DNA from: Nostoc sp. PCC 7120 = FACHB-418
Lineage (GTDB): Bacteria > Cyanobacteriota > Cyanobacteriia > Cyanobacteriales > Nostocaceae
Length of the DNA: 32,000 nt
Direction: 5' to 3'
Assembly: GCF_000009705.1 (NCBI RefSeq)
Contig: NC_003272.1
Span: 3,990,001-4,022,000 of the forward strand
The translations under genes and the position numbers were made by a program. The notes beneath the pieces were generated by a model. That model did no database searches. It had not been told where the DNA came from and saw nothing but the letters and a program-made list of their open reading frames with translations. Position 1 is the first letter of the stretch, and each line of letters starts with the position of its first letter. This document shows positions 7,701-27,398 of the stretch, piece after piece.

Positions 7701-8766
7701 AGGTAATATTGGCGACAAGTTACAAGAAATTATTGCCGGGATTCAGGGATTGATTGATCAGGCACTAGATTGGCTGATTGATCGGGCTGTGAATCTGGGA
7801 CAGGGATTGCTTAACGCGATCGGACTTGGAGAAGATAATTTAGAAGAAACAACAGGTGAGCCAGATACACCAGAAAGTCAAGCTCTTAAACAAGAAGTTG
7901 CTCTCGCAGTACAACAAGCTTTTGCGGAAGAGCATACAGGTGCAGAGACAGAGAGTATTATCGCTAGAATCCGTTCTCAATTCCAGGCACAAGGATTAGA
8001 CGACCTCTTTTTAGAACCAAACTCTAATGGAACTGGATTTATTCTGTATGCAAAAGCAAGTCCGAAGTATCCACTAGGCATATTCCAAAAAGAAGCAAAT
8101 ATGACACAAGCAGAAAGTGAACAAATGCTGCATTCAGCTATTCGTCTAACGTTAGTTGATTCTATAGGGTTTAATCGTCAAAATATTCCTTTGGTTGAAT
8201 CCACTGAAAAGAACATTGGTAGAGGTGGTGAAGCGTGGCAACCTGAAAATCTTACGACAGAAATTCGTGCAGTTACCTGGAATACCTCTGGAGCAAATCG
8301 TCGAAACAATATCACTCATGCCGAACGTCAATTTATGAATTGGATTACTAATCCTAGTCAAGAAAACGTTTTACTAAAACTGAAAAAGCTGGAAATCCAA
8401 AATATTAATGAAAGTCCTTGTGGAGCTTGTTCAAATCAATTAGCCCATCTAATAAGAGAAATTAGAGAGAAACAAACATCCGCAGGGCAGGTTTATCTAG
8501 AAGAAGCACACCTTTACTGGACAAAACGCCATTTAGGTGAGTCACCAACCAGCGCTAGCGACATTACTATATTGCGAGCAAGCGGTTGGACTTTGCACGC
8601 CCCCCAAAATCAGTTACCGATCCAAGGAATCGAGGACAGTAACTTGCAAGAATTACCTGGAGTATTAGAGTATGAACCAGGATTTAATCCTAATGATAGA
8701 GCAGTCGTTATTCATCCACCTGCGAGTAGTAGTTCTAGGAGCGGTGGAGTAAGAACCAGGGTTTAA
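4744..8766 (+). CDS. DUF4157 (eCIS-associated) protein with a C-terminal deaminase-fold toxin-like domain; candidate CIS cargo or effector
   Basis: 1340-aa ATG ORF. Leader motif TPFFQAKLTVGEPGDRYEKEAEAIAHQV (nt ~5188-5271). DUF4157 core GFGADFSQVRVHTG...AFTTGNHIFF...GRNLLAHELTHTLQQ, with HExxH at nt 5611-5625. Long duplicated helical region. C-terminal HAE (8317-8325) and SPCGAC (8413-8430). Confidence 0.9.
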   Translation: MKTAETKTTSHQHQGNSAKPFFDANHEQKFFGAGIVQTKLFFQPQYTSSELGIQRQCRDCGIEQQGQPLPQIQRQPIFESENVETQSHLQRQATTSDTAPVTYLQPQEEATPELEETSGDLASPVIQSKGDGSIPPGDGDNSFRSDTETPFFQAKLTVGEPGDRYEKEAEAIAHQVVSQPQPSQQPTTHPAVTQLQRANNEQPGSPIPTNLESRLQQAQSSGTPLDTQTRLNMEAGFGADFSQVRVHTGQDAASLARSLGAVAFTTGNHIFFNTNQYQPASATGRNLLAHELTHTLQQDAAIQRQPAVSSTSHTVQMLPESIIGQINDYARYIPGYTLFTVVIGFNPLTGNAVERNASNLLEGLMGLVPFGTFIFDKLREMGILQSAFTWVEGELGRLDLSVGRIERTLEAAWEDIHLVAGFDDNLAVLRQNFQQLYQDVEAFARSLINQIIQLIKDAAINLAEGLLANNQAWALIKKILKHDPLRNQPVAATTVEILEDFLRLIGKEQELEQMQERGTLEQTAAWLDTQVGTFISLLGELGSLFTSAWDAIQPENLPNLSTNLESIINQTIGFLQRVWDFAITVAAKVLELIKQALLGWLSSFAIDIPGYHLLTVIMGKDIFTEQSVPRTVINIIRGFMSLLPNGEQKFQQMQETGVIPRAAQRIEALMGELGISWPFVQELFLNIWNTLTIEDMVTPIDTFIRVLEQFREPLNRLLTFVIEVVKIVLELLLEIMNFPSDIIGNIMNNALQALDDIQQDPVGFLLNLLRAVKTGFTNFFDNILQHLLSGVTDWLFGQVRKAGIEPPTEITLESILNLVLQVLGVSMDRIWSKLGDRIGQENVARIRGAIDRLSGIWNFVRDVQQRGIAAIWEYIQTQISNLWNMVLEQVRSWIVSRIIDRVIAKIVSMLDPTGIMAVVNSFIAFFNAVQSAIEYFREILEIVDSFVGMVAEIASGSIDQAAQFLENLLAQSLPVAIGFLANQVGLGNIGDKLQEIIAGIQGLIDQALDWLIDRAVNLGQGLLNAIGLGEDNLEETTGEPDTPESQALKQEVALAVQQAFAEEHTGAETESIIARIRSQFQAQGLDDLFLEPNSNGTGFILYAKASPKYPLGIFQKEANMTQAESEQMLHSAIRLTLVDSIGFNRQNIPLVESTEKNIGRGGEAWQPENLTTEIRAVTWNTSGANRRNNITHAERQFMNWITNPSQENVLLKLKKLEIQNINESPCGACSNQLAHLIREIREKQTSAGQVYLEEAHLYWTKRHLGESPTSASDITILRASGWTLHAPQNQLPIQGIEDSNLQELPGVLEYEPGFNPNDRAVVIHPPASSSSRSGGVRTRV

Positions 8767-8808
8767 TCATCATGACAAAGCAAATATCGAATATAACAAC
8801 CAAAAATT

Positions 8809-9129
8809 ATGTCTTTTAAATTCAAGCACCCCCGTAAACCTCCTGTCTCCCCGGAAACAGAAAAACCATTCTTTCCAGGCGATCAGCTACGCGCCACCAG
8901 AGGCGATCGCCCAACTCCATCACCTTTCTTTAGCAGCAAAGTCACCATACAACCCAAGCTAAATGTAGGACAGCCTAATGATGTATATGAACAAGAAGCA
9001 AACGCTGTAGCTAATAATGTCAGCGAACCCAACATACAGCGTCTCGCCACAGAAGAGGATATGACGCAAACATCCATACTGCAAAAGTCAGAAGAACCTG
9101 AAGAAATACAGACTCAAGTTGCTAGTTAA
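8809..9129 (+). CDS. Small protein consisting only of a DUF4157-type N-terminal leader (no HExxH core, no toxin)
   Basis: 106-aa ATG ORF, 42 nt after the large DUF4157 gene. KPFF...SPFFSSKVTIQPKLNVGQPNDVYEQEANAVANNV...IQRL parallels KPFF...TPFFQAKLTVGEPGDRYEKEAEAIAHQV...LQRA of the upstream protein. The C-terminal tail is acidic. Confidence 0.55.
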   Translation: MSFKFKHPRKPPVSPETEKPFFPGDQLRATRGDRPTPSPFFSSKVTIQPKLNVGQPNDVYEQEANAVANNVSEPNIQRLATEEDMTQTSILQKSEEPEEIQTQVAS

Positions 9130-9183: not shown

Positions 9184-10866
9184 TCAAATCCAATCTACTA
9201 TCAGCATATCTTCCATCCAAGGGAATTTAACTATGTTCAGTCCCCACGGTAGACGACTGAGAAGGATATCAATGGATTGACGCTCAATCTGGAGTTTCCA
9301 CGCACCATTATCGTTACGGGTGAGTTTGCCTTCGCGCTGTAAAAAGCCTTCGCGTAGACCGTCGGGGCTGGTATTTTTTAGGGCTTGCCAGTAATCGATC
9401 GCTGTTTGTAATAGATGTTCAGCTTCATTTAAGGCGGTGGTGGGTAAATCAATGTTACAGGCGATCGCTTGATTTAATGGCCAGCCACAAAGTAATTTCG
9501 GTAATACCAACTCATATTCGGGGGCATCGGTTTGGCGAGTTGCTAGGTAATGTAAGAGATAAATTGCCGTTTGCTGTGCTGATTCGTCACGGAAGCTTTC
9601 TTGGTCTACTAGTGCGACATCGTTGAGATATATGTGCAGAAATGGGTGCAGTAGGACTAAGCCAGCTTGATTGATGTAGATACCGGTGATTTCTTCTTCT
9701 GGTGACAAGATGGAAGTTTGCGGGTTGTTTTGAGAATCGATTTGTTGATGTTGGTTGTTTGATTCGGGTGTGGCTTTGGGAGAGGATATTGAGTTTCTCA
9801 ACGCAGAGGGGATCTGAGGTTTACGCAAAGGGTCGTTGAGGTTTGTTGAGGTTGTGGTTTCAGGTGCTGGGGGTAGAATTTGGTTGAGTGTTGTTAGCCA
9901 AGGTGTTCTGGAGTTGGTGGGGATTGTGGCTAGGATAGTTCGCAACCGTTGATATATCCCGGAATCGGGTAGTTGTGTTTGTGATTCATTGGGTTCGGGG
10001 GTGGTAGGAGTAATTTGAGATTGGTTTGGGGATGCTTCGGGTGTGATGGTGGCTTGCTGTTGCCAAGTTTGGACGAGAATAGTTAGCCAGTTGCGTATCC
10101 ACACAGTCTTGGGTAAGGGTCTTGTTGAGGAGCTAGTTTGAGGGATTTCTGCTAGTAGTAACAGCCAAGCTTGTGTGTTGAGGAACTCATAGAAGCGATG
10201 GCATTCAGCCCACTGTAGGCGATCGCCATTTTGATTTAAACTCAACGCTTGGATAATTTGTTGTCCTTGGGTGAGTAGAGTAGACCAATCAATCCAAGTG
10301 GGTTGCAATTGCAAGACTAACTGATGGCAAAAGCTTTCTGGGAACTGGGAAACCAAGCGCTGTCTGACTTGCGGATTTGTGGCTAGCAATTCTCGTAAAG
10401 GTTGCTGCCATGTCGTTTCATTTTGTATGGCTGCTTGCCAACGGGGTATCCACTGTTGCCAGTTATTAGCCTCTACCCACCAAGGTAAGCGACCATACCG
10501 TAAAAAATATAACAATATCTCCCAATCTGCCGCACTCCGATTTTGGCTGAGTATTGGGGAATTTGTCTTAGTAGTTAGGCGATTCGCTAGATAATCTCTT
10601 AGCGTTTGGTTCACAGCACTGATTAATTTAGGTATAAATTCATCTTGAATAAATTGAGGATGAATAACGCCTAAATCTACAACCACTTGATCCAATCGCA
10701 CCACCTCATCAGCTGCTACCAACTGTTCAAAAAGTTGTGCCATTGCTGGTATGCCCTGTTGTTGCAATAAGCGACTCATATCTTCTTGCAAGCTCCAGAC
10801 ATCAGCTAGTTGCCCAGTATTTAGCTCCAGTACGGTTCGTCCGATGATGTGGCGTTGTTGTGTCAT
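9184..10866 (-). CDS. cis14: CIS tape-measure protein (Afp14/Cis14-like)
   Basis: 560 aa with an ATG start; last gene of the operon. The N-terminal block IIGRTVLELNTG...VVRLDQVVVDLGVI and the C-terminal block GIYINQAGLVLLHPFLHIYL match my recollection of the CIS tape-measure family. The middle is low-complexity and P/T/Q-rich. Confidence 0.75.
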   Translation of the reverse strand: MTQQRHIIGRTVLELNTGQLADVWSLQEDMSRLLQQQGIPAMAQLFEQLVAADEVVRLDQVVVDLGVIHPQFIQDEFIPKLISAVNQTLRDYLANRLTTKTNSPILSQNRSAADWEILLYFLRYGRLPWWVEANNWQQWIPRWQAAIQNETTWQQPLRELLATNPQVRQRLVSQFPESFCHQLVLQLQPTWIDWSTLLTQGQQIIQALSLNQNGDRLQWAECHRFYEFLNTQAWLLLLAEIPQTSSSTRPLPKTVWIRNWLTILVQTWQQQATITPEASPNQSQITPTTPEPNESQTQLPDSGIYQRLRTILATIPTNSRTPWLTTLNQILPPAPETTTSTNLNDPLRKPQIPSALRNSISSPKATPESNNQHQQIDSQNNPQTSILSPEEEITGIYINQAGLVLLHPFLHIYLNDVALVDQESFRDESAQQTAIYLLHYLATRQTDAPEYELVLPKLLCGWPLNQAIACNIDLPTTALNEAEHLLQTAIDYWQALKNTSPDGLREGFLQREGKLTRNDNGAWKLQIERQSIDILLSRLPWGLNIVKFPWMEDMLIVDWI

Positions 10867-10880: not shown

Positions 10881-13800
10881 TCAACGGGGCTTAATTACAG
10901 AAGGTGGGGTTGAGCCAACTTGTTTAGATGATGAGTAAGTCCAACCGACGATTAACATGAAAATGGCAGTACTCATGGCTAGTAGCTGGGGTAGTTTGAT
11001 TTTGGTGATGATTTCTCCTCGGTTGAGGGGAAAGAGGTTTTGTATGCGTGTGAATAGGTTATCTGGGTTGGTGCTACGGGATGGGCTAGTGTCGGTGTCA
11101 GCGTCGATAACCCGGATGATAACTTTGATGGTAGCTCCTTCTAGGCGATCGCCATTTACTTCTCTGATAGCTTGTGCTTGAATCTCATGGATACCTATAC
11201 TCGGTTGCCAGTCATCAGGCATCCGGTAAGGTGCAGTGTTGGCGGTGAGTGCTTGGCGGCTGCCATTGGGTTTGGTGTAGGTGAAAATTACACTATTAAC
11301 CTTTTCTGGCACAGTCATCGCCTCAAAGGTGTACTGGTTATTAGGATTGAAGTCTGAGAGATTGAAGGTGCGATCGCCATCCAAATTAGTACTATTTATT
11401 ACTTCATTATTACTAATTGCCAGTAAATTTACTGCACGAACTTCAGGATGAGGAATCGGGTTTTCTGTCGGCGCATCTCCGCTATCAGGGTTAGAGGTAT
11501 CTTCAACGTCTCTCACTGGCACTTCTGGTGGTGGGACGATGGTAACTCGGCGTTCCGTGTTATTGCTACAGCCTTGATTGCTGATTGTATATCTCAGTGT
11601 AATAACTTTTTCTTCCTCATCACCCAAGTTCACTGCACTGGGATTGAATTGTGGGGGAGTTGTAGGGCTAATTACATCTGCTGTGATATCTTCTTCACCG
11701 TCAAAGGCTTGGAAAGTTCCGCCTAGTTGTGTAGCGATCAGCCCTACAGGCGGATCATTATTGGTGAAGGTGTCCCGGTTTCCTGTTGATAATCGGAAGT
11801 TGGCATTGGGTACAGCAAAAATCCTCAGTTCTTGGGTGAACTTATTACTACAGCCTTGGTTGCTAATACTGTATTCCAATGTAATGACTTTTTCTCTGGC
11901 TACACCCAAGTTAACTGCACTTGGGTCGAACTGTGGGGGTGTTGTCAGGCGATTAATGACATCTGCCGAGATATCTTCTGCACCATCGCGCACTTGGAAA
12001 GTCCCGCCCGGTACTCTGGCTATCAGGTCTACGGGTTCATCATTACTACAGAATCTGGTTTTACCTTGCCCAACTTGGAAGGTAGCATTGGGTACAGCAA
12101 AAATCGTTATATCTCGGCTTAACTCATTGGTGCAGCCTTGGTCACTGGTGATGGTATACACCAAGGTAATAACTTTTTCTGTTGCTCCTCCCAAATTAAC
12201 AGCACTGGGGTTAAATTCTTGGTTATTAATGACACTGGCGGAAATATCTGTTTCACTATCAAAAGCCCGGAAATTGCCGCCTGGTTGTGTGGCTCTGAGG
12301 GTTACGGGGTTTTCGTTACTACAGAAATTTGTTTTGATTTGGAAACTGGCATCTGGTAAGGGATAGACGGTAACGCTCAGGGTGTCGTAGCTGCTTTCAA
12401 CAACGTAGGTAAAAGTGATGGCTGTTTCCGAAGTAATATCGTCGGTAATGCGGCTGGGTTGGAAATAATATTTGCCGTCTGCAAAAAAGCTACCTTCGCC
12501 TTTCAGTGTGCCACCTGTCGGGTCAAGAATAAATTCATAGCGAGTTTCATCGCCTGCACAGAAAGTAGTTCTATCTAGCAACACGATGGGGCGAGGCTGA
12601 GTTAGTACATAACTAACAGTGGGGGTCTTGCTGCTAAAACGATAGGGTAGGCAAAAATCGCCAACAACGATATCTTCACGGTTGAGTAATTCTCGACTAG
12701 TCGCTAGTTCCTGGGGTGAACCTGGGGGTAAGGAAGCGTATTTCTTGATTACCTCGGTGCGGGCTTGATAAGTAGGATCGCGATCGGCACTTAGCAGGTT
12801 TCTCACTAATTCCCGTCCATCGACGTAGACCAAAACGAATGTACCGCCTTTCGGCACACCTCCCAAGTGTTCCATCCCCGGATTATTTTGTGCGAATTTA
12901 TGGAATAGTTGCAATTCCATGATCTGTGCCAAACGTTGCTGATAAGCTGTCATCAGCCCCTTGAGTTCAAAATAATTGAGCGTATCGGCGGCTAGGCGAT
13001 CGCCCATCCTCAACTCCAGTCGATTGACGCGGATGGAGGATTCTGGAACATCCCGCAGCAAACTATAGAGGGTTTCAAAGTCTTGAAACTCTGGTTGGTT
13101 GATAATGGGGCTATTACCCTCAAAATTAACAGTAAAGAAATTCAGCGAAATAAAGCTAATGTCTGCCGTCCCTCTATTTGCTGGTAAGTCCAGTTCATCA
13201 GCTAAGGAAAATCGCAGATAATAGCTGAGGGGGTTGTTGGCTGACTCAGGTTCTACCCCATAAGTAATTTTCCCCAAAGGCAGACAAGCCAATAAATCTC
13301 CAATAATGCGCTCCTGTTCTTGGGTCAGACTGTCGCCTGATAACCCAGAAAAGTTAATTACTGTCTCAAAACGCGCAATGCGAATACCTGCGGCGTTACG
13401 CAGATATAGGCGATAGCTGTCACCGCTTTCCTTGACAAATTCATAAGCTTCTTTAACGCTGGCTCTAGCCACAATGGGGTTAAATAGTTGGTCACTTTTA
13501 ATTTCCGCCAAACTAGTCTTGTCAAAGAAAACTCGTTTGAGTGTGTAAAGAAAAACATTCCGTGACCAGCTTTCCTCATATCTTTGCCAAAGTTTTGCAA
13601 AGGTATCTTTGATGCGTCCAAAGTCTGCATTCAAATCATCGAACTGACCAGAAATATTGATATCTTGAAAACTTTGCAGATTGCCAATCTTCAGGGTAAT
13701 GACATCAAAAGCTAAATTGTAGCGCTGCTGATAGTCGAGAATCCGTTGCAAAGCCGTGGCGTTGGCTTCCCCAATATGTCCTTCAATGCGGTAAAAAGAA

Positions 13801-15311
13801 TAGTCATCTAAACGGTGCAGTAAGTCAGAATTGGGGGTGATATTGGCGTTGTTGGGATAAAAGTAAGCCGGATGGGACTGACTGCGCCCTTTACGGTAAG
13901 TATCATAACTCCAGTATTGATACAACTGTGGATAATTGAGGTAATAAGGAATTGCCTGTTGGCTCAAGGTTGCAGCACGGTCTTTACTGGGGGTGATTTT
14001 TAGGGGCGTGTCATAAAAGGGTAACAGATAAAAACTATCCGCAGCGCACAGACGTACGAGGCGATCGTAAAGGAAGCGTACTTGTTTGACACGTAACTGA
14101 TTGCCGTTATAAATGGGGGATTGGCTAAAATTGCTCCGATATGGAGAATTTAGGGCATATACCTCTGGCTTTTGGTTGGGAAGTGGGACTAGTCCCAGCA
14201 TGAGGAACTTGGGAAAGCGTCGGGTATCTGGTGTAGCGTCGTCCATCAAGTCAAAAGCCGACTCTGCTAATTCCCGAAAAGCAGATACTAACTGACTGAG
14301 GTAGTCATAGAAGTATTGTAAGGCGTACTGGGCTTCGATTTGGGAAATAGGCGATCGCCTATTTTCTGCCGACGAGCCAGACACAATATCGCTGAGACGT
14401 TGATTAAGTAGGGTTTTCAACCCGGTGAAATCAGAGGGTGCAGGATTAAAAGACGAGAAAAAAGGCGAAAACAGCCGGAAAAGATTTGGGAATGTACGAT
14501 CAATCTCATCAATTGCTTGCAGACATACTTGTTGGTAGCCTTTAAGAAAGGCATCGTAGTCAACAATATTCGATAAACGAATGACAGGTGGTGTCTCCAG
14601 GGTATAACCGAAGCGTCGCACTTGGGGAAAGAAATTCTGGAAGAAAGAAGATTGAGCCTGGAATATGTCATTAATGCTGAAGTCTCGCCACTGTTGGGGT
14701 AAAGGCTCTCTGGAAAACCCTTGTTGCAGCAAAGCCTCAGCGCTCAACTTCTCCGGTACAGAACGGGGTAAGAGAAAATAGCGTAGGCGGAAATTCCTGT
14801 CTTTACCTGTATCATCACAATCGAGTAAACAAGAGTCCCGTTGCTGATCCTGAAGTTCATATACTACTACTAACGTCTGGTCAGCCAGAAACCTAGCAAA
14901 AGCATTCTCATCTGGTAAATTCTTGAGCGCTAACCGATTATTCCCTTCCTGTTCAAAGAGTTCTACAAGTTGATCAGTTGATGCGGCTGTTTGTTCTTCA
15001 CTAGGCGCGAACAAAGCCGAGGGTACAGACACTCCACTTTGATAATGAGTTAATTTTGTTTCCGCCAGAGAAATTATATATCCCTCAGAAGTAATACCAC
15101 ACCCTGGCGCAACAACTATGTTCACATCCCCCGGCTGATAGATGCTACTCACCTCCATCCCAGCCACAATTCCCATACCAATCAGATAAACACGAGTTAA
15201 CCGATTCTGCTCATCAAGATAGGTAACAACACGATTCAGGTCTTTATTAGTCAAAACCTGATTAGGCGTAAAAATAGGATAACTGTTAGGGATGGTAATG
15301 GTAGTAGTCAC
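10881..15311 (-). CDS. Large CIS-associated distal or baseplate-peripheral protein with 3 tandem Ig-like repeats, a C-terminal beta-sandwich-like domain and a C-terminal transmembrane anchor
   Basis: The track ORF extends to 15332 through a TTG inside a dispersed repeat. A GTG at 15311, preceded by GGAG with 9-nt spacing, is the more likely start. Three ~94-aa repeats lie at nt ~11540-12375. Hydrophobic helix LLAMSTAIFMLIVGWTY at nt 10935-10985, 17 residues from the C-terminus. Confidence 0.85.
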   Translation of the reverse strand: MTTTITIPNSYPIFTPNQVLTNKDLNRVVTYLDEQNRLTRVYLIGMGIVAGMEVSSIYQPGDVNIVVAPGCGITSEGYIISLAETKLTHYQSGVSVPSALFAPSEEQTAASTDQLVELFEQEGNNRLALKNLPDENAFARFLADQTLVVVYELQDQQRDSCLLDCDDTGKDRNFRLRYFLLPRSVPEKLSAEALLQQGFSREPLPQQWRDFSINDIFQAQSSFFQNFFPQVRRFGYTLETPPVIRLSNIVDYDAFLKGYQQVCLQAIDEIDRTFPNLFRLFSPFFSSFNPAPSDFTGLKTLLNQRLSDIVSGSSAENRRSPISQIEAQYALQYFYDYLSQLVSAFRELAESAFDLMDDATPDTRRFPKFLMLGLVPLPNQKPEVYALNSPYRSNFSQSPIYNGNQLRVKQVRFLYDRLVRLCAADSFYLLPFYDTPLKITPSKDRAATLSQQAIPYYLNYPQLYQYWSYDTYRKGRSQSHPAYFYPNNANITPNSDLLHRLDDYSFYRIEGHIGEANATALQRILDYQQRYNLAFDVITLKIGNLQSFQDINISGQFDDLNADFGRIKDTFAKLWQRYEESWSRNVFLYTLKRVFFDKTSLAEIKSDQLFNPIVARASVKEAYEFVKESGDSYRLYLRNAAGIRIARFETVINFSGLSGDSLTQEQERIIGDLLACLPLGKITYGVEPESANNPLSYYLRFSLADELDLPANRGTADISFISLNFFTVNFEGNSPIINQPEFQDFETLYSLLRDVPESSIRVNRLELRMGDRLAADTLNYFELKGLMTAYQQRLAQIMELQLFHKFAQNNPGMEHLGGVPKGGTFVLVYVDGRELVRNLLSADRDPTYQARTEVIKKYASLPPGSPQELATSRELLNREDIVVGDFCLPYRFSSKTPTVSYVLTQPRPIVLLDRTTFCAGDETRYEFILDPTGGTLKGEGSFFADGKYYFQPSRITDDITSETAITFTYVVESSYDTLSVTVYPLPDASFQIKTNFCSNENPVTLRATQPGGNFRAFDSETDISASVINNQEFNPSAVNLGGATEKVITLVYTITSDQGCTNELSRDITIFAVPNATFQVGQGKTRFCSNDEPVDLIARVPGGTFQVRDGAEDISADVINRLTTPPQFDPSAVNLGVAREKVITLEYSISNQGCSNKFTQELRIFAVPNANFRLSTGNRDTFTNNDPPVGLIATQLGGTFQAFDGEEDITADVISPTTPPQFNPSAVNLGDEEEKVITLRYTISNQGCSNNTERRVTIVPPPEVPVRDVEDTSNPDSGDAPTENPIPHPEVRAVNLLAISNNEVINSTNLDGDRTFNLSDFNPNNQYTFEAMTVPEKVNSVIFTYTKPNGSRQALTANTAPYRMPDDWQPSIGIHEIQAQAIREVNGDRLEGATIKVIIRVIDADTDTSPSRSTNPDNLFTRIQNLFPLNRGEIITKIKLPQLLAMSTAIFMLIVGWTYSSSKQVGSTPPSVIKPR
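11540..12375 (-). repeat. Three tandem ~282-nt coding repeats (Ig/PKD-like, Cys-containing modules)
   Basis: Repeat boundaries are marked by 'tttgctgtacccaatgc' (reverse complement, near 12104 and 11822), giving a 282-nt period. Protein repeats: FAVPNA.F......F..N..PV.L.A...GGTFQ..DG.EDI.ADVI....PPQF.PSAVNLG...EKVITL.Y.ISNQGCSN. Confidence 0.85.
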
Positions 15312-15380
15312 GTCGCTTCGCTCCAAATTCAAAATTCAACTTTTCTCAACTCTTCTCAACTCTTCCACCCAGCAATGTTA

Positions 15381-18300
15381 TTAATCATTAGCAGTTCCTA
15401 ACGCAGTCTGATTGAGGATAGCGGGATTATTATCAGCACTACTTTCTTCGCAATCATGTAACGTAGCTTTGGGGTACACATTCCGCAGTTGAGGCAGGAT
15501 TTTCAACAGACGGTTAAGCGTCCCTGTCAAATCACAGGCGGCGTTTTCGCAACTCTCCAGCGCCAATTGCTCTAACCAGTGACGATAAGCAAGCTCAAAA
15601 TCTCGCATTTGGCGGACATTCACCCAGGCAATTTTCAGAGCGATGTGTGCTGGAGCCTCTAGACGCAGAGTGCGTTCAACAAATCGGCGGAAAGGAATAT
15701 CACGAAAGCGTTGCGGCCAGTAGGGTAAAACGATTGTCACCCAAAAAGAATAAGGATCTGTTCTCGCTAAAAGATAGGGGTCGTCTGGTTCTGTATTGAC
15801 ATCCTCCGGCGTTACCAAAATGGGTAAAAAGCCATCGCCGGCTGTTAAGTCGGGGAGCTTGGTTCGGGGACGTAAAAGAATATGCTCTAGGAGATGGAAG
15901 CCTTCGTCATTGCTGTATTTTTGAATTTCTGCGATCGCTGCGGTGCGTTCTTCTCTACTGTTGTAATATTGCGCCGCAAAAATTTCGTCTTTACCTTCAT
16001 TGGTCAGTTCCCAGCCGTAAACACCATCATCACTATCAATCAGTCGGAAGTTCTCTTCATCCTGAGCCAGTTCCATCAAGGTGTTACCCTGTTCCCATGC
16101 GATATCCTCACTGGTGTAACGCTGTGTTCCTTGCAAAATCAACTGGTTGTCTGGGTTGTAAATTTGACTTATGTATGCTAATGAATCTAATGAATTGGTA
16201 CTAATCCTTAAACGAGCCGTGCGAACCAACAATAATAAATGCTCAATCGCTGCATCCCTTTCTGCTTCTGATGTATAGGTTTGGGTATGGATAGCGGCTA
16301 CACTGTTAGTATCGCGGGGACGGCTCAAAATCCGAAAGCCAAACTCCTTATTAGTTGTTGTAGGATTAATTACCCCTGTTTCAAATAGTGTACCTAAAAC
16401 ATCTTGGTAAAAGCGATCGCGGGCTGTAGTCTCATCACCATATATTTGGATACTTTGCAGTATAGTTGTTTCCTGGCGGTCTACGAGGCGATAACGGTAG
16501 CCAGAGGTGGGTGTTGTTGCTGCTTCTATAACTAAAAATGGTTCAAGAGCATTTAGGCGCTGGAAGGTAAGCAAGCGATCGCTTTCTGTGGTTGTTACTG
16601 CTAAAAGTTTGCCTGTCTTGTCGGTAATTCCTAAACTATAGGTCTGTCCAGTGTGATCCTTGGCTGGGCTGAGGTAGCGGTTGAGGTAGCGGAGGTTTTC
16701 GGCGAACTCACTAGCAGCTTGCCAAGCCAAATACTCTGTTGCGTATGAACTAATACCGCGTAATAAAGTTTGACTATTAGTAATGTCGTTGATAACAAAG
16801 ACATAACCATTGGTGATAGTCTCTATGGCAAACTTGTATTGATTCTGATTCGCTTGAATGTGAGTTAACCAGCGTTGTAAGCTTAGTTCTCTTTCTAACT
16901 CAGTTGGGAAATGGTGAGTATATTCACTAAGGAGACTGCCTTGATGATCAACTAAGCCGTAGCCGTAATAGGTGAATTTTTGCGGAGTCGTCCCTTGATC
17001 CTGACCTAACGTAATATTGCGGTAATTCTGCACGTCTTGAATTAGCCTCAAGCTAATAACCCCAGCGTCTACGGCTTCGGTGCGGGAAAAATAGCGTTGT
17101 ACACCAGTAAAGGTAATTACGCCAGAGTTGAGGGGAATTTGTAAGCGGAAGGAATATAAGTCCTCATCTGTCGGCTGGGTGATAACTAAATTTTGCAGGG
17201 CGGTATCATCTAGCTGGGATAACTGCGTTAATAAACTTTGTAGCAGTGGTTCTAAAGCTGCGGCTCGTTCTTTAGTGGAGGGAAAAAAGCGATCGCTCCT
17301 AACTATACTCTGATTTTGGGTATCTAATATTTCCCAACTGTAATGATAATAATACTTATATGAAAGTCGTTTGTAAAAGTTAGGGTGTAGGGCAAATAGC
17401 AATAATTTATCTTGGTCAGCCTGGGCTTGTTCTGTGGTGGCGTATCTCTGTTTACTAGTTAAGGTTAAGTCATCAGAACTAAAATCTATACTTAAAAATA
17501 AATTACGACTATCTTTATCTACACGATAGTGGCTGAGGTGACGACGACGCACATCATCAATCCCCAGCAACCGCAACACCCGCTTTTTGAAACCCGCTAC
17601 ATTATCGGTATCCCAGACAGCATGACAATCATAGTAATTGTAAGCCCGGAAGCGATCGCGGCTTAAGGTGGGATAGTCTTGTAAAAATTGGGCTTTGTCG
17701 TGAATAATTTCGGTTTCTTGGGTCGCCTTGTTGTTACGGGTGGCAAACATCTGATAATTCAACAAGACATAATCACTAAAAGACTCAGAAAAACGAGCTA
17801 GTAAATGATCTAAAAAACGATTACGGCGATCGCGATAAGTTTCCGGTGCTTCATCCAACACATCAAGATAGTTATCAGGGATAATTTTTTCTATTTCAGG
17901 AAAATCCAGCTTTTGGGTAAAGTAAGTACGCTGCTTCTCCTGAAGACGGGTAGCATAATCGTTTTGTTGGGGTTGAGTCACATCGACTTCCCAAGAAAAC
18001 AAGTCACGAATATGAGAGAGTTGAGCAAGGTAGCTTGCTAATAACTGATCAAAAAAGACGAGATAAGCTTTTAGTTGTAAAGCCTGAGCTTTGCGTAAAG
18101 CTGGGACAGTTGGTGGTAGTCCGTCTTCACTGATGCCGTAGGTCGTGGGAAAATCATGATGAATAGAATAATGGTCGGCTAAGTCGTAATAACTCCCCTT
18201 CGGAACAGGAATATCCAACTCATCTCTGTCGCGGATGGTTTTGATATAAGCTGCTTGTTGTTCATAATAGCGGCGTTCCACTTCTTCCTCATCTACACCG

Positions 18301-19388
18301 ATGGGTAATTCACTTTTAAAGAAGTTGATTTTTGATGTTTTCACCCCCAATACCGGACGATATTGATCAGTTAGTTGGAGATACCAAGGGTGTCCTTGAG
18401 TCTGACGTAAGCCGTTGATATAGTTAGCGATACTCAGTTTCTTGATAGCCGAGACACCAGGAACTTGCAGAATTTCCTGATATAAATCTGATGTATGCAG
18501 AATAGTCGGTAAAGTCAAAGCTTCTAATTCATCGGTATCAATAAAGCCATGACTTTTATATAGTCTATTCTCGCCATCAAAAACCGAAGGTCTACCAGCA
18601 AAGATTTCTGCTGGACTTTTACCTTTGTCTAGTAATTCCTGTAGGGTATAAAATTTGAGACGTGGTGATAAGAATTGTTGTATTCGCACGTAGATATTTA
18701 CCAACACATCTTCCGCATCAGCATTAGTTTCTAGTTGAATATCAGCGCAAATTCCAATTTCTTCTTCACCCAAAATCACGATATCTGCAAAATCTTCACA
18801 GAGATTGCGACTATCACACAATACTTGTTTGACTTCATCCAGCGTATCACCCCAAGAACGGTCAATTTGTCCGCAGGCATTTTTGCGGTAATCTTGGTCA
18901 AGATCCAACCTGACTGTATATAAACCACGGGGATTTAAAGTTTTAGATTCTGCTGTCGGAGGGTTGTACTGTAAACGTTTGTCTGAAAAATTTACATAAA
19001 TATTTGGCTCATAACTCGTCACCTTTTGCAGCCAAGCATTCCGCACCCCAGGAATATCGATTAATCGTTTGCGTACATCTAATTCAGTGACAGGATTACA
19101 AGTCAGGACTGCATCAGGGGTAAAAAAATTATTCTCCCGACTATTCCCATCCTGGGGATTCAACGCTAACAGGTCAGCAATATCTAGATTGTTGCGATAG
19201 CCTAAATCTGTAATCGCATAGCAAAGCACCTCCAGAATCGTGACACCAGGATCATGCAGGTTGTAATCAGTCCAGATTTTACCCGATAAAGCTTGTAGGT
19301 GTGTAATGCCAATATCCCGCAGAGTTTGAAAATTCAGATAAGGCGGGAAATCAGGTTTTTGCTTCGATATACTAAGATATTCCGGCAT
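15381..19388 (-). CDS. cis12: Large baseplate wedge protein (Afp12/Cis12 position)
   Basis: 1335 aa with an ATG start. N-terminal motif WTDYNLHDPGVTILEVLCYAITDLGYR is typical of phage and CIS baseplate-assembly proteins. Sits downstream of the baseplate-J gene in the operon. Confidence 0.75.
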   Translation of the reverse strand: MPEYLSISKQKPDFPPYLNFQTLRDIGITHLQALSGKIWTDYNLHDPGVTILEVLCYAITDLGYRNNLDIADLLALNPQDGNSRENNFFTPDAVLTCNPVTELDVRKRLIDIPGVRNAWLQKVTSYEPNIYVNFSDKRLQYNPPTAESKTLNPRGLYTVRLDLDQDYRKNACGQIDRSWGDTLDEVKQVLCDSRNLCEDFADIVILGEEEIGICADIQLETNADAEDVLVNIYVRIQQFLSPRLKFYTLQELLDKGKSPAEIFAGRPSVFDGENRLYKSHGFIDTDELEALTLPTILHTSDLYQEILQVPGVSAIKKLSIANYINGLRQTQGHPWYLQLTDQYRPVLGVKTSKINFFKSELPIGVDEEEVERRYYEQQAAYIKTIRDRDELDIPVPKGSYYDLADHYSIHHDFPTTYGISEDGLPPTVPALRKAQALQLKAYLVFFDQLLASYLAQLSHIRDLFSWEVDVTQPQQNDYATRLQEKQRTYFTQKLDFPEIEKIIPDNYLDVLDEAPETYRDRRNRFLDHLLARFSESFSDYVLLNYQMFATRNNKATQETEIIHDKAQFLQDYPTLSRDRFRAYNYYDCHAVWDTDNVAGFKKRVLRLLGIDDVRRRHLSHYRVDKDSRNLFLSIDFSSDDLTLTSKQRYATTEQAQADQDKLLLFALHPNFYKRLSYKYYYHYSWEILDTQNQSIVRSDRFFPSTKERAAALEPLLQSLLTQLSQLDDTALQNLVITQPTDEDLYSFRLQIPLNSGVITFTGVQRYFSRTEAVDAGVISLRLIQDVQNYRNITLGQDQGTTPQKFTYYGYGLVDHQGSLLSEYTHHFPTELERELSLQRWLTHIQANQNQYKFAIETITNGYVFVINDITNSQTLLRGISSYATEYLAWQAASEFAENLRYLNRYLSPAKDHTGQTYSLGITDKTGKLLAVTTTESDRLLTFQRLNALEPFLVIEAATTPTSGYRYRLVDRQETTILQSIQIYGDETTARDRFYQDVLGTLFETGVINPTTTNKEFGFRILSRPRDTNSVAAIHTQTYTSEAERDAAIEHLLLLVRTARLRISTNSLDSLAYISQIYNPDNQLILQGTQRYTSEDIAWEQGNTLMELAQDEENFRLIDSDDGVYGWELTNEGKDEIFAAQYYNSREERTAAIAEIQKYSNDEGFHLLEHILLRPRTKLPDLTAGDGFLPILVTPEDVNTEPDDPYLLARTDPYSFWVTIVLPYWPQRFRDIPFRRFVERTLRLEAPAHIALKIAWVNVRQMRDFELAYRHWLEQLALESCENAACDLTGTLNRLLKILPQLRNVYPKATLHDCEESSADNNPAILNQTALGTAND

Positions 19389-19397
19389 GGAGAAATA

Positions 19398-19424
19398 GGG
19401 TGTAGGGGTGCAAGGGTATAGGGG
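19398..19424 (+). repeat. G-rich short tandem repeat (GGGTGTAGGGGTGCAAGGGTATAGGGG), a G-quadruplex-type motif
   Basis: Four G3-4 tracts separated by 4-5 nt, on the plus strand (the template strand of the operon), 10 nt from the cis12 start codon. Confidence 0.6.
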
Positions 19425-19488
19425 AAAAACTAATAACTACTAAATTTTTGCGTTCCTCCGGGCTAGTTTGTGTTTAAAAATTTTAAAT

Positions 19489-19953
19489 CTATGTTGTTCC
19501 AGCTAATATATGAACTGTTGATTGTCCCAACAACCAAAAAAACATAATTCCTAATCCGATAAATAATATAGGAATAAATCTAGCGAGTAATTGCAAACGG
19601 ATTTCCATTTGCTTTTGATATTCAGTAAACTCTTGGTGGAGAGTTTCTAATTCATGTTGAAGCTTATCTACTTTTTGTTCTAACTCCTTGAGTAAAGATT
19701 TCCAGTCAGTGCTGATACCTGGTGTTTGCTCCTCCTTGGCGCAGATTTCGTTCTCAGACTGCATTTCCCATAGGCTGTGATTGTAGTAGACTACATCGCC
19801 TTTTTGGTAGGTTTGCCCTGGTTTCCAAATTCCATGAAAGCGATCATCTCGCTTATTTAGTGTCGAGTCGATTAACTCTACAAAATAAGTTTCGGATAAA
19901 CGACTTTTGTTTTTAAATAGACTTTTTAATTCGTTACGTTTTCGCAAATTCAT
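19489..19953 (-). CDS. Tail-anchored membrane protein: CBM5/12-like motif, coiled coil and C-terminal TM helix
   Basis: 154 aa; the ATG lies 2 nt after the baseplate-J stop. WKPGQTYQKGDVVYYNHSLWE (nt ~19762-19836), heptad-like LLKELEQKVDKLQHELETLHQEFTEYQKQ, and TM helix FIPILFIGLGIMFFWLLG (nt 19525-19578). Confidence 0.75.
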   Translation of the reverse strand: MNLRKRNELKSLFKNKSRLSETYFVELIDSTLNKRDDRFHGIWKPGQTYQKGDVVYYNHSLWEMQSENEICAKEEQTPGISTDWKSLLKELEQKVDKLQHELETLHQEFTEYQKQMEIRLQLLARFIPILFIGLGIMFFWLLGQSTVHILAGTT

Positions 19954-19955: not shown

Positions 19956-22900
19956 TTATTCACCTAACTCCAAATCATTTAATGATTCATAGCCAAGAAC
20001 GCCAGATTCAAGTTTCTGGTTATTAAAAACGATCGCCTGCTCGATAAATTCTTCAATCATGTGGTCTTGATTGCTAGTCTTTGGGGAAACTGAAGTGATT
20101 ACAGAACGGGGAGTGATGGCGATCGCTTCTCTGATATCTTGTTGATTATTCAGGTTCATTTTGAAATTCACGACATAATCAACGTAGTACTGCTCCTCAA
20201 CAAATTTGAGAATCGAAGACCGATAAACTTTACCCCCAAAGTTAATATCTGCACCGCTATCCACTGTCCAAGGGGTGAGAAAACCAACAATGGCTTGCTG
20301 CAATTCCCGGCGGTAATAACCAAAGTTGCTGCTGTATGGAGCTTTTAACTTGACTTGAAAGTCAACTTGGATGCGTTCATACTGGGGATTCACCACTTTA
20401 ATCATTGCCCAAGGGGAGCTTACACTAGCGAGATACTTTTCAATTTCTTGCAATAAGTTAATGTTGACCTTGGGTTCTAAATCGTTGGTGGTGCTGCGTT
20501 GTGACAAGTCAGGGATGACAGCTAAAGTCACAGAACCCGGTGCTAGTTCATATAACTGCTCCTGAGCGTCATCAAATTGCCCATGATTGATACAGCGTAC
20601 CTTATAAATTTGAGGAAACTTTTCTAGTACCAATCTCTCGTAGTCAAAAATGGCGACGGCTCGTCCTTTATGGCGTAGGCGTTCACTGATGCGGATGTAG
20701 AAATTCTCTGGCTGTTCTTTAACTCGTCCGCCAAAGGAAGTGTAAGGTTGGGCAATTTTTTTAACTTCCGGTTGGGGAACAGCTAGCTTACTAATTGTCC
20801 CACCTGCTAGGGGACTACCTAAATGGTTGGGGTCGTTACCTGCATCCTTGAAGGTGACGCGAGCCGCTTGGGTGTGTACACCGATGATTTCACAAACAGT
20901 CCGGCTACGCGCGGGGATAGTGACTTTGAGCCAGTGAAAATTGGGGTCGAGAATTGTGGTTTGATTCCTGCTAATATCTGCGGGAATGCCTAAATTAATA
21001 ATGCCAGAGGTAACTAATCCATTGCTGGCATCATTGACGATGCGATCGCCTAAAGATTCCCAAGCATTATCCTTGAGATAATACCACTGGAGTTTATATT
21101 CTTCCTGCCGACGCAAGCTTATATCCGCCGTTTCTTCTGCTACCTGAAACAATAGGGGTAAGGCTGTAGGCGGGTCTAGGTTTTGTAACCCAATGAATAA
21201 TTCACCTTCCTGGTTGAAATAGGGGAGCAAAGGAGGATTTACTGCCAAATTTACCTTTGCAAACCCACCGAAAGGATGTAGATGAAAAAGGATGCAATCG
21301 CTCATACCTGCTTGAGCAGTGTACTTGAGAGAGAGCGATCGCACAACCGGCAGATATGGTTCGTTAGGAATAATCGGTTCATCATCAAGGTTTACATAAT
21401 AGGTAGTAGCCGCAAATATTGATTTGTCTGGTCGGCGGTAATAAGCGCCGATGACCGCTTGTCGCTTCTGGTTACTACTAACAACTACCGTCTGATTGGT
21501 GGCTGCTGCTAGTACCTGCTTCGCCAACACTCTGGGATATTGTTCATGGAGAAAGTTACCCGACAATTGCAACCGCAGAAAACCAGTTTTAGTCTGAGGA
21601 GTGAACATTTCCACTGGTGCGGATTGATCAAAAGAATCTAGTTTTAAATTTGCTAATTTACTAGTAAGAGAAATTTCGGGAGTATCCAACAGATTAGCAG
21701 TTACATTAGCAGTAGTCGGATACCAAGTTTTTTGACGCAAACCTTGAATTTTGACTTTTCCTGGTTGAAAGTTAGCAGGAATATCATAGCCAGCGTAGAA
21801 CTCTATCCAATTATTAGGTTTTGGTGTTGCCAATTCTAGGGAAATTGTCAAGGCAATCAGGCGTTTTTGTAATACTTCTTGACTACCGATATAGAGATTA
21901 GCTTTGTCTTGAGGCTGGAAACCAAAAGGCTCAAAGGGTCTGGCAGGATTTAGGACAGAAACATCATTTTGTACTACCAGATTACGCACCTCATCCACAC
22001 GGGTTTGCACCGTAATATCGAGGATTTGGGCATCTCGAAAATAATGATAAGGCGATCGCTCATTCACCAACAGCTGATGATTCAATTCCAGCCTAGCTAC
22101 AGGTATCGGTCGTTCTAGTTGTAGAGGTAAATTCAGTTCTTTGGGGTCGTAGGGAATCGGTGCATCTGGGCGATAGGGTAAGATGGGAGCCACATCCGCC
22201 GCCAGTTCTACTACCAAATACAAATTAGAACCATCCCATCTAGTCTGCTCTTGACCATTGGTAGCAAGTTGACCAACAGGTAAAATAGGGGCAGGTATCC
22301 ATGCTTTCTCACCACTGAGATAAACTACAAACGCCTGATGTAGTTGATTATCGGGTAGCCGTGGGAAAAAGCCCCCCAGGGATAACTTAAATTCAACAAC
22401 ACGCCGACCCTCTTGTAATAAAAGCACATCAGAAGCGATCGCCACTCCTAAACGTGCATGATCACGCTGTTCATTACCAAAAGGCAACCATGTCTTAACA
22501 ATTTGTTCTTGGGGAAATGCTCCCCCCTTCCCATCCACAGAATTGGCGACTGGTGAAGCATACAAACCCGTAAGATTTTGCGGAACTGCTGCTGTTTTCC
22601 TCTCTTGGGAGTCGAGAAACAATCCTTTGAGGCTAGCAATTTGGGCTTTATGAATAACCGTTTCTGCATCAAGCTGATAAAACAGGTCTACCCCTGTCGC
22701 ATCTTTCCCCGCCTTGAAACTGGTACCAGCCGTCAGTTTATATTCCCGTTGAGATTTAGCTAACTCAAACAGCAAGTGAACCTGATCAGCTTGGGCTGGG
22801 CGATCTGGTAGTAACAGTACTTGACGGTAGAAAAAGTCCAAGTGTCGCTGCGTCAAGCGATTGAGGTCATCCCGTGCAGGTTGCAGCACCTCCAAAAAAG

Positions 22901-23699: not shown

Positions 23700-24149
23700 C
23701 TAATTACCACTTCCTTCTTGTAGGTAGAAGGGGTAGACAAAGTTAAAGCGGGAATTTGTGCTGATGATGGTGCAATCTACAATGATTTGAATTAAGCCTT
23801 GGGCATCGGCTTCGTTAACTGCTGATGGATTTTGGCGATCGCTTATTCCTTGTTGAATATCTAGCTTGTTTAGGCGGATACGAGGCTCGTAATATAAAAT
23901 TGCCGTCCGTACCAGTTCTTTAATATTGCTAGCTACTGTAGGGCTAAGGCTTTCAAAGAGTAAGTCTTGCAAATTACAACCATAGTTGGGCTGCATTACT
24001 CGCTCACCCAAATTGGTAGACAAGAGAATTTGCAGGCTCTCTCGAATATCGTCTTCTGCACTGACAAGTCGGACACTCCTGGCTTTTTTCTCAAAGGTAG
24101 GGGGAAAACCCCAACCAGTACCTAAATAAGCGTTGCTCTCGTCGTCCAT
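23700..24149 (-). CDS. cis9: GPW/gp25-family baseplate wedge protein (Cis9)
   Basis: YLGTGWGFPP...DDIRESLQILLSTNLGERVMQPNYGCNLQDLLFE is the gp25 lysozyme-like signature. The likely ATG at 24149 is preceded by GGAGG inside the end of the PAAR gene (GGAGGCTGATATG); the track ORF begins at a TTG at 24161. Confidence 0.9.
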   Translation of the reverse strand: MDDESNAYLGTGWGFPPTFEKKARSVRLVSAEDDIRESLQILLSTNLGERVMQPNYGCNLQDLLFESLSPTVASNIKELVRTAILYYEPRIRLNKLDIQQGISDRQNPSAVNEADAQGLIQIIVDCTIISTNSRFNFVYPFYLQEGSGN

Positions 24150-24150
24150 A

Positions 24151-24453
24151 TCAGCCTCCAATGAGTACGGTAAATTCTCCCAAAACTATCGAGCCTCCGT
24201 GTGCTGTTGTATCACCCAAACGGGCAGCAGGTTTGCCCCCAATCATCACAGTTGAAGAACCAAGAACGATCGCATCAGGAGGCCCGACGCAGACACAACT
24301 ATCACCAAGGACAGCCGCAGGTAAACCCCGAATCAAAACTGTAGGTACACCCGGCCCCACAATCGCCCCCCCAACATGAGGGATAGGAGGAAGACCAGGA
24401 GTTTGCATTGGACAAATGTGCATATCAGTAAGACGAGCGGCGGGTTTTCCCAT
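24151..24453 (-). CDS. cis10: PAAR-domain spike-tip protein (Cis10)
   Basis: 100 aa with three PAAR-type motifs (KPAARLTD, LPAAVLGD, KPAARLGD) and a G/V/P-rich beta-cone composition. Confidence 0.95.
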   Translation of the reverse strand: MGKPAARLTDMHICPMQTPGLPPIPHVGGAIVGPGVPTVLIRGLPAAVLGDSCVCVGPPDAIVLGSSTVMIGGKPAARLGDTTAHGGSIVLGEFTVLIGG

Positions 24454-24470
24454 AAGATTCCTTTTGGAGT

Positions 24471-24506
24471 AGGGGCAGGGGGAGCAGGGCAGGGGAGGTG
24501 GGGAGG
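24471..24506 (+). repeat. G-rich STRR-like run (AGGGGCAGGGGGAGCAGGGCAGGGGAGGTGGGGAGG), a G-quadruplex-type motif
   Basis: Five G3-5 tracts with 2-4-nt loops in the 85-nt VgrG-PAAR spacer. They are on the plus strand, so the operon mRNA is C-rich here. Confidence 0.6.
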
Positions 24507-24538
24507 ATAAACTTCAGACCTCAGCAGCAGTCAACACC

Positions 24539-27009: not shown

Positions 27010-27075
27010 AGTTTATAAATAGAAGGCAGTCCCGATGAAACAGGTTTCACAGCCAAACAGGAAAGATGTCTTTTT

Positions 27076-27110
27076 CCTACACCCTTACACCCTTACACCC
27101 CTACACCCCT
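27076..27110 (-). repeat. Octamer tandem repeat (TACACCC-type on plus; GGGGTGTAGGGGTGTAAGGGTGTAAGGG on the sense strand), a G-quadruplex-type motif
   Basis: 'cctacacccttacacccttacacccctacacccct'. On the minus (mRNA-sense) strand this gives four G3-4 tracts with 4-5-nt loops, 67-101 nt upstream of the cis7 ATG. Confidence 0.65.
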
Positions 27111-27350: not shown

Positions 27351-27398
27351 AAATTTATCCTCTTGTCAGTTGTCGTTAGTTATTCTCATCACTCCCCA

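Follow-up and report, generated by a model that had tools for sequence, protein, structure and literature searches.

The stretch of DNA analysed here (the window, 32,000 nucleotides of Nostoc/Anabaena sp. PCC 7120) contains a single long minus-strand operon, running from 31839 down to 9184, with a complete set of structural genes for a contractile injection system (CIS). Judged by its sequence, it is the published operon all3313-all3327 of the thylakoid-anchored contractile injection system (tCIS), i.e., the type locus and founding member of this class. The sole new element found in it is a conserved C-terminal hydrophobic helix of the 'crown' protein Cis19, which is unreported in the literature searched; it is a modest lead and does not point to a new kind of system. 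The genes of the operon, numbered according to Weiss et al. (2022; PMC8894136), are as follows.

9184..10866, minus strand: cis14 (all3313), tape measure (Pfam CIS_TMP, E 3.6e-129).
10881..15311, minus strand: cis19 (all3314), 1476-aa 'crown' protein, GTG start at 15311 (identity to 7b5h_AA).
15381..19388, minus strand: cis12 (all3315), 1335-aa outer baseplate wedge (identity to 7b5h_AD).
19489..19953, minus strand: cis13 (all3316), 154 aa, tail-fibre position, thylakoid anchor (identity to 7b5h_AE and BAB75015.1; role according to Weiss et al., 2022).
19956..23651, minus strand: cis11 (all3317), 1231-aa inner baseplate wedge with cage and Cis13-binding extensions (identity to 7b5h_AH; Pfam Baseplate_J).
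23700..31839, minus strand: remaining operon, with cis9 (gp25), cis10 (PAAR), cis8 (VgrG), cis7, cis6, cis5, cis1 (tube), cis2 (sheath, all3325) and the cap genes all3326 and all3327.
27198-27350, minus strand: cis6-like open reading frame (ORF) of 50 aa (small-ORF search).

The Pfam matches in the operon cover the Pvc16_N cap, the sheath, two gp19-type tube proteins, CIS_tube, the VgrG/OB spike, PAAR, gp25, Baseplate_J and CIS_TMP, and together with the small Cis6-like ORF they make up the complete gene set. The interval 10881-19953, which is at the centre of this work, comprises three genes with ORFs of 154, 1335 and 1483 aa. In a search against the PDB sequences, the 154-aa protein was identical over 154/154 residues to chain 7b5h_AE of entry 7B5H ('All3316', Cis13), and it is also identical to BAB75015.1; the 1335-aa protein (Cis12) matched 7b5h_AD ('All3315') at 1335/1335 residues; residues 16-1246 of the Cis11 ORF were identical to 7b5h_AH ('All3317'); and residues 8-1483 of the Cis19 ORF were identical to 7b5h_AA ('All3314', 1476 aa), which starts from an internal GTG. 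The mechanically called cis19 ORF, 10881-15332 on the minus strand, counts 1483 aa from a TTG at 15332, whereas the deposited protein, of 1476 aa, begins with the GTG at 15311; an exact-sequence look-up showed BAB75013.1 to equal Cis19 save for V/M at this GTG start codon. The same look-up revealed near-identical Cis sequences in strain FACHB-709, and Trichormus variabilis NIES-23 is likewise near-identical (Weiss et al., 2022, Table S2; PMC8894136).

A preliminary description of the window, made from the letters alone, had tentatively placed the locus in the thylakoid-type class described for Anabaena PCC 7120. The residue-for-residue identities support this assignment, and in fact the locus is exactly that one: the comparison with the proteins of the PCC 7120 cluster, which had been proposed as a check, returned identity for Cis11, Cis12, Cis13 and Cis19. 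The remark that the baseplate-J protein and Cis12 are oversized was right as to the sizes (Cis11 1231-1246 aa, Cis12 1335 aa), and the extensions responsible were published by Weiss et al. (2022). Thus, a rare class of injection system was rightly recognised from raw sequence; a structure and mutants of this system had appeared in print in 2022. As to the class, the size remarks on Cis11 and Cis12 and the anchoring role of Cis13, the preliminary description was correct and amounts to a rediscovery of what was already known.

In the published work (Weiss et al., 2022; PMC8894136), All3316 was designated Cis13, All3315 Cis12, All3317 Cis11 and All3314 Cis19, the 'crown' protein. The tCIS particle resembles a phage tail, is assembled in the cytoplasm and is seated in ~35-nm pores of the outermost thylakoid stack, with baseplate and crown facing the cell envelope in 98.6% of particles; some particles are found in thylakoid layers two to four. 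Connectors of two kinds, six narrow and six wide, hold the particles in place. Each narrow one consists of a Cis13 trimer at the position of the Afp13 fibre, and the C-terminal triple helix of this trimer penetrates the thylakoid membrane; the six trimers bind through their N-terminal domains to the C-terminal extension of Cis11, whose extra domains also form a cage. The wide connector is the extension of Cis12 (aa 610-1100). Electron cryotomography (cryo-ET) and western blots on this exact locus showed the particles in situ in thylakoid pores and none released into the supernatant. Firing is occasional and occurs only after stress-induced lysis, when 'ghost cells' expose the particles; upon contraction, crown and cage tilt outwards (all PMC8894136).

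Cis13 and Cis12 contain the following features relevant to membrane attachment.

19492..19590, minus strand: C-terminal transmembrane region of Cis13, aa 122-154, with the core FIPILFIGLGIMFFWLLG at 19525-19578 followed by an 11-aa tail.
19585..19707, minus strand: helical coiled-coil stalk of Cis13, aa 83-123 (weak Pfam leucine-zipper match; corresponds to the triple alpha helix leading to the membrane in Weiss et al., 2022).
16089-17561, minus strand: 'wide connector' extension of Cis12, aa 610-1100 (coordinates from Weiss et al., 2022).
16716..16775, minus strand: predicted amphipathic helix of Cis12, aa 872-891, SQTLLRGISSYATEYLAWQA (position from Weiss et al., 2022, Supplementary Fig. 8).

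The 154-aa protein (ORF 19489-19953, minus strand) indeed ends, as had been described, in FIPILFIGLGIMFFWLLG (nt 19525-19578) plus 11 residues. Its best 19-residue window has a Kyte-Doolittle mean of 2.12 and a sum of 0.72 on the Hessa biological scale, the second-best Hessa sum being 18.0. In 20 homologues the helix is flanked by a mean of 3.2 K+R before and 0.15 after it, a charge bias that fits an N-in/C-out topology. Superfolder GFP (sfGFP)-Cis13 was membrane-bound in E. coli only with the C-terminal helix, and after truncation of Cis13 behind His100 in Anabaena 9/14 particles were free-floating and 5/14 were loosely attached at odd angles (PMC8894136). For Cis12, the homologues Alg12, Pvc12 and Afp12 (922-963 aa) align only over ~aa 5-623. 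The hydrophobic moment of aa 872-891 is merely 0.27, and sfGFP-Cis12 showed no membrane binding in E. coli (PMC8894136). The preliminary description held that the proteins making the anchor could not be read from the sequence; for Cis13 and Cis12 this had already been answered by Weiss et al. (2022).

The features of the C-terminal part of Cis19 are listed below.

10884..10928, minus strand: short polar tail after the helix, SKQVGSTPPSVIKPR (disordered in the AlphaFold2 model).
10929..10994, minus strand: C-terminal hydrophobic helix, aa 1440-1461, LPQLLAMSTAIFMLIVGWTYSS, a putative tail anchor (hydropathy, AlphaFold2, homologues).
11031..11063, minus strand: amphipathic motif DNLFTRIQNLF, ~13 aa upstream of the helix (hydrophobic moment 0.63; AlphaFold2 helix 1420-1426).
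11106..12353, minus strand: flexible arm, consisting of three immunoglobulin (Ig)-like repeats (11535-12353), a Pro/Asp-rich linker (11445-11534) and a fourth beta-sandwich (11106-11444).

The ~1476-aa protein had been described as ending in LLAMSTAIFMLIVGWTY (nt 10935-10985) plus 17 residues, which was confirmed. Its best 19-residue window reaches a Kyte-Doolittle mean of 1.69 and a Hessa sum of 1.82 (second-best 6.5), and just one window lies above a Kyte-Doolittle mean of 1.6. Cis13 and Cis19 have the two lowest Hessa sums of the 19 proteins of the window (the next one being 4.6), and the Cis19 helix ranks second in hydrophobicity among the segments of the entire window. As a background, 240 BLAST-confirmed soluble Cis9, Cis11, Cis12 and Cis14 homologues from 75 related loci were used (198,206 19-residue windows). 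None of these windows (0/198,206) reached the Hessa value of Cis19, the lowest per-protein minimum being 2.36, and the hydrophobic ends therefore exceed chance expectation; the Wimley-White octanol scale discriminates less, with 36 background windows reaching the value of Cis19. The protein ends in an uncharged stretch of 23 residues followed by 14 residues (15 past the end of the AlphaFold2 helix). As the Hessa sums reveal no second hydrophobic segment in either Cis13 or Cis19, both proteins lack an N-terminal signal peptide, in agreement with the earlier claim, and Cis19 fits the tail-anchored pattern, i.e., a single hydrophobic helix near the C terminus, a short tail and no signal peptide. 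A sorting signal of the PEP-CTERM/exosortase or sortase type was considered for this end and rejected: neither the last 89 aa nor the full protein gave an NCBIfam match at E <= 1 except for a weak N-terminal one (see below), an N-terminal hydrophobic segment is absent, and the tail of 14-15 aa is polar rather than a basic cluster. From the hydropathy and the homologues described below, the C-terminal helix of Cis19 looks real and conserved in part of the homologues.

At the other end of the protein, the NCBIfam model 'CIS13 family' matched aa 20-82 weakly (E 0.0056, well short of the cut-off), which is in line with the idea of a baseplate-attachment module common to crown and fibre proteins.

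Weiss et al. (2022) mention the C-terminal helix of Cis19 neither in the main text nor in the supplement; their analysis of amphipathic and transmembrane helices (TMHMM) was confined to Cis12 and Cis13, and only ~49% of Cis19 (729/1476 residues) was modelled, the other half being read as tail-fibre-like crown protrusions (PMC8894136). A catalogue of CIS receptor-binding domains from 2026 treats the crown protein as fibre type eBAP4 with flexible chains of Ig, lectin and PKD domains, and the word 'transmembrane' is absent from it. In the literature searched, which included few subscription papers and no UniProt feature tables, no membrane helix of Cis19/All3314 was found.

Residues 938-1476 of Cis19 were modelled with AlphaFold2 (mean predicted local distance difference test score, pLDDT, 84.9). 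The model consists of three Ig-like domains and a fourth beta-sandwich (pLDDT >90), disordered linkers at 1267-1285 and 1407-1439 (pLDDT <50), a short helix at 1420-1426 and an isolated 22-residue helix at 1440-1461 (pLDDT 54-69), which is followed by the disordered tail. The best Foldseek matches of the arm were cadherin/protocadherin ectodomains, the Sap S-layer protein and the GhpA grappling hook; these were only generic Ig/cadherin-like strings, and the search of the C-terminal model yielded no functional clue for the last beta-sandwich. The predicted string of beads thus appears to be a generic flexible arm. Note that a 262-aa ORF on the plus strand (11578-12366) runs antisense to the three Ig-like repeats; it is almost certainly no gene, and it is internally repetitive because it mirrors these repeats.

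A search of the protein collection yielded at least 120 Cis19 homologues, the 92 closest of which, mostly cyanobacterial, were inspected. In 22/92 there is an alignable hydrophobic C-terminal module: a basic residue precedes 18-29 uncharged residues, then comes a GW(T)Y aromatic belt, in most cases with (R/K)Q next, and at the end a tail of 12-34 residues rich in S, P and Q. The identity values of these helix-bearing homologues are 29-61% in the C-terminal region and 37-67% over the whole proteins. Another 13 homologues stop shortly past a conserved amphipathic motif of the LLNRLRVLF type (NLFTRIQNLF in PCC 7120), 14 further ones carry a different helical C-terminal module, and the remainder end otherwise; the Cis19 homologues of Bacteroidota in the set have ends without a hydrophobic helix. 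The amphipathic motif is thus kept in the helix-less 'truncated' homologues and could be a peripheral membrane-binding or docking element. Recent pseudogenisation was considered as well and rejected, since three-frame translation of the DNA behind the stop codons of 12 helix-less Cis19 genes gave no remnant of the GW(T)Y type. In a rough neighbour-joining tree of Cis19 N-terminal halves, on which we do not rely, the helix-less 'truncated' forms fall inside helix-bearing groups at least three times, which suggests that the helix is a labile module that was lost repeatedly.

Only one metagenomic homologue (P0021) stops at '...YEYKIKPN', exactly where its nearest relatives P0017 and P0020 enter the hydrophobic helix; the cause is a recent nonsense mutation or else an error in the assembly.

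The distribution of the helix was also compared with the type of Cis13. A scan with one genome per species gave 75 loci, 32 of which (the window included) had both cis13 and cis19 complete. All short Cis13 proteins in this sample possess the C-terminal helix (18/18 loci), and the long fibre-type Cis13 proteins of related loci (555-923 aa) have none. Among the 18 loci with short, helix-bearing Cis13, the Cis19 helix is present in 6 and absent in 12; among the 14 with long fibre-type Cis13 it is present in 0 and absent in 14 (Fisher p = 0.024, shared ancestry not corrected for). The Cis19 helix was therefore found only in loci with a helix-bearing Cis13, namely in the window, Leptolyngbyaceae RU_5_1, Scytonema hofmanni UTEX 2349, Calothrix NIES-3974, an uncultured Calothrix and Brunnivagina elsteri.

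The Calothrix locus deserves a comment. Supplementary Table 2 of Weiss et al. (2022; PMC8894136) lists Calothrix NIES-3974 without a Cis13 transmembrane domain, which, as Calothrix Cis19 homologues do bear a helix, made us suspect that Cis13 and Cis19 could be complementary anchors, a system having either one or the other. However, Calothrix sp. NIES-3974 encodes, between Cis11 and Cis12, a 165-aa Cis13 homologue with a clear C-terminal helix (L004:5380-5877; YLTLLTLGIAIALVWLFGGAIY), and this idea was rejected, as no locus has a Cis19 helix without a Cis13 helix. The Calothrix helix was probably missed by the published BLASTP search with a 33-aa query, and the survey of loci, with this strain as an example, suggests a wider occurrence of helix-bearing Cis13 than the published table shows.

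Some further observations concern the long Cis13 proteins. A metagenome-assembled genome of Phormidesmidales encodes a Cis13-like protein of fibre length (725 aa; L035:5247-7424) that ends in a hydrophobic helix (TTVLAIGVLVSWIMIAIF) plus 5 residues; judged by its sequence, it may be an intermediate between fibre-type and anchor-type Cis13. The long Cis13 fibres (555-923 aa) of the loci L011, L012, L028, L043, L047, L051, L058, L059 and others carry a conserved motif '...AYQNLVPVL.KA..EL' ~20-40 residues from the C terminus, which may resemble the C-terminal intramolecular chaperone of phage tail fibres. The same loci have a very large Cis12 of 2000-2700 aa.

What could be the function of the Cis19 helix? 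We infer that it forms a second, flexible membrane tether. Cis19 would form six trimers around the spike cage, i.e., 18 chains, each consisting of an arm of ~15-20 nm plus linkers with four beta-sandwich beads, a disordered linker, the tail-anchor helix (aa 1440-1461) and the short polar tail. Coming from the cytoplasm, these helices would enter the thylakoid membrane around the pore and act there as an accessory, flexible set of tethers in addition to the Cis13 anchor. The thylakoid membrane around the pore is the most likely insertion site, because in the modelled parts of Cis19 the C termini gather at the crown periphery (PMC8894136), and because a flexible residual tether would explain the 5/14 tilted, loosely attached particles of the Cis13 mutant. 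All in all, we are fairly confident that the window is best explained as the published tCIS operon in which the C-terminal helices of Cis19 would serve as such accessory tethers. If true, this would account for the residual tilted attachment in the Cis13 helix-deletion mutant and would reinterpret the 'crown protrusions'. As for the earlier claim of two tail-anchored proteins, it holds for Cis13, whose anchor was validated by Weiss et al. (2022); Cis19 carries a plausible and conserved anchor, and the literature reads this part of it as a fibre-like protrusion.

Several points weigh against a tether function of Cis19. Its helix is only moderately hydrophobic (Kyte-Doolittle mean 1.69), with S and T among its residues, and shows a weak charge bias between its two flanks (K+R 2.7 before vs 1.6 after). 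Weiss et al. (2022) saw a detergent micelle for Cis13 and reported none for Cis19; furthermore, they observed free, fibre-like crown protrusions on ghost cells and purified particles (PMC8894136). About three quarters of the homologues do not possess the helix, including close relatives with a helix-bearing Cis13. As 12/18 loci with helix-bearing Cis13 are without it, the Cis19 helix must be dispensable for anchoring and is at best accessory.

A first alternative is that the hydrophobic end of Cis19 sits in no membrane of the producer and that the arm is a true tail fibre. The helix would then pack on other chains or on the beta-sandwich, bind a partner, or engage a target membrane once exposed on ghost cells. 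Both Weiss et al. (2022) and the 2026 catalogue regard Cis19 (eBAP4) as a fibre with Ig/PKD adhesion modules, the free protrusions measure 15 nm (PMC8894136), most Cis19 homologues end in other, non-hydrophobic modules, and AlphaFold2 gives the helix 1440-1461 low confidence. Nevertheless, a conserved uncharged stretch of 20-25 residues with basic flanks, an aromatic belt, a short polar tail and a disordered linker is what a membrane anchor typically looks like, and a free fibre does not agree with the restriction of the helix to systems with membrane-anchored Cis13. Moreover, 18 exposed helices per particle would be expected to be prone to aggregation in the cytoplasm. We regard this possibility as worth considering but doubtful.

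A more far-reaching form of the tether idea is that Cis19 is a TssK-like baseplate adaptor with its own tail anchor rather than a free receptor-binding fibre, so that 18 extra tethers would couple the state of the membrane to firing. Since the crown must tilt outwards for the tube to pass, tethers would link membrane rupture or swelling, as in ghost-cell formation, to crown opening and firing. We consider this proposal unlikely.

Alternatively, the Cis19 helix could insert into the cytoplasmic membrane. In that case the arms would connect the particle held in the thylakoid with the cell membrane, and rupture or movement of this membrane on lysis would pull the crown trimers outward and license firing. 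This would agree with the orientation of crown and baseplate toward the cell envelope in 98.6% of particles, with the outward tilt of the crown trimers on contraction, with firing observed only after lysis, and with the restriction of visible fibre-like protrusions of the crown to ghost cells, many of which had lost the cytoplasmic membrane (PMC8894136). According to the model, four beads and linkers of ~30 and ~35 residues could span a few tens of nm, and the Alg19/Cis19 fold is reported to resemble TssK, the baseplate-to-membrane adaptor in type VI secretion systems (T6SS). On the other hand, a density connecting the crown with the cytoplasmic membrane was not reported, the modelled Cis19 C termini point to the crown periphery and not forwards, and the particles in the second to fourth thylakoid layers are beyond the reach of the cell membrane (PMC8894136). 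Insertion into the cytoplasmic membrane seems quite improbable.

Finally, an ordinary released extracellular CIS (Afp/PVC-like), with which the locus shares its core genes and in which both hydrophobic ends would be due to chance, is refuted by the published experiments on this very locus, i.e., the exact match to a system that cryo-ET showed anchored in thylakoids and that is missing from supernatants (PMC8894136), and is at odds with the conservation of both helices in homologues and the lack of a comparable segment in the 240 soluble CIS proteins.

Outside the operon, the following feature of the window is related to the CIS.

4744..9129, plus strand: divergent putative effector genes alr3311/alr3312 (Pfam eCIS_core in 4744-8766; both are named in Weiss et al., 2022).

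The assignment of the two names to the two divergent ORFs was inferred from the gene order: ORF 4744-8766 (1340 aa, with the eCIS_core domain) presumably corresponds to the putative effector alr3311 and ORF 8809-9129 to alr3312. The latter, a 106-aa ORF on the plus strand downstream of the former, has no Pfam match and contains the sequence 'DVYEQEANAVA', which resembles the start of an eCIS_core domain. Two hydrophobic windows of the 1340-aa protein (aa 714-735 and 906-933) were considered as transmembrane segments and discarded; they contain E and K and are amphipathic. The flanking genes for a pyridine nucleotide-disulphide oxidoreductase (177-1358, plus strand) and a TonB-dependent receptor (1999-4095, minus strand) look unrelated to the CIS.

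Among the known systems, the tCIS of PCC 7120 (Weiss et al., 2022; PDB 7B5H) is the same locus: Cis11, Cis12, Cis13 and Cis19 are 100% identical, the gene order all3313-all3327 is the same, and there is no sequence difference. The nearest solved relative outside cyanobacteria is AlgoCIS of Algoriphagus machipongonensis (Xu et al., 2022; PDB 7AEB, 9WSZ/9WT0). It shares the spike cage on Alg11/Cis11, Alg11 and Alg12 match the core parts of Cis11 and Cis12, and it has a downward-pointing fibre, Alg19, that is homologous to the N-terminal half of Cis19 (9wt0_a, 'PKD domain-containing protein', matches Cis19 aa 338-837 with E 7.6e-39). In contrast to tCIS, AlgoCIS is a system released to the medium, and the 610-1100 extension is missing from Alg12 (922-933 aa). 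The AlgoCIS paper describes the Alg19 fold as similar to TssK, which serves in the T6SS as adaptor between baseplate and membrane complex, and nowhere uses the word 'transmembrane'.

The likeness to Afp and PVC (PDB 6RAO, 6J0N) is restricted to the core, i.e., sheath, tube, spike, PAAR, gp25, Cis11/12 wedge, tape measure and cap. Afp11 and Pvc11 are much shorter than Cis11 (607 and 728 aa), Afp12 and Pvc12 have ~950-963 aa, the place of the 154-aa membrane anchor is taken by back-folded Afp13/Pvc13 fibres, and a crown protein is absent. The PCC 7120 system differs from extracellular CIS in just these respects: its Cis13 is a 154-aa protein with a membrane helix, and release was excluded by Weiss et al. 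(2022; PMC8894136).

With TssK and TssJLM of the T6SS, the likeness is one of concept, in that a trimeric protein at the baseplate periphery links a contractile apparatus to a membrane; in addition, the Alg19/Cis19 fold is reported to resemble TssK. TssK is not known to have a helix of its own; its docking partners are separate membrane proteins of the cytoplasmic membrane.

The last comparison is with tail-anchored membrane proteins, which have a single C-terminal helix and a short luminal tail and are inserted post-translationally. Membrane insertion was shown for Cis13 only (Weiss et al., 2022); for Cis19 it is suggested by sequence and model. The helices of both proteins lie within ~35 residues of the C terminus, both proteins are without a signal peptide, and the bulk of each resides in the cytoplasmic assembly, just as in tail-anchored proteins.

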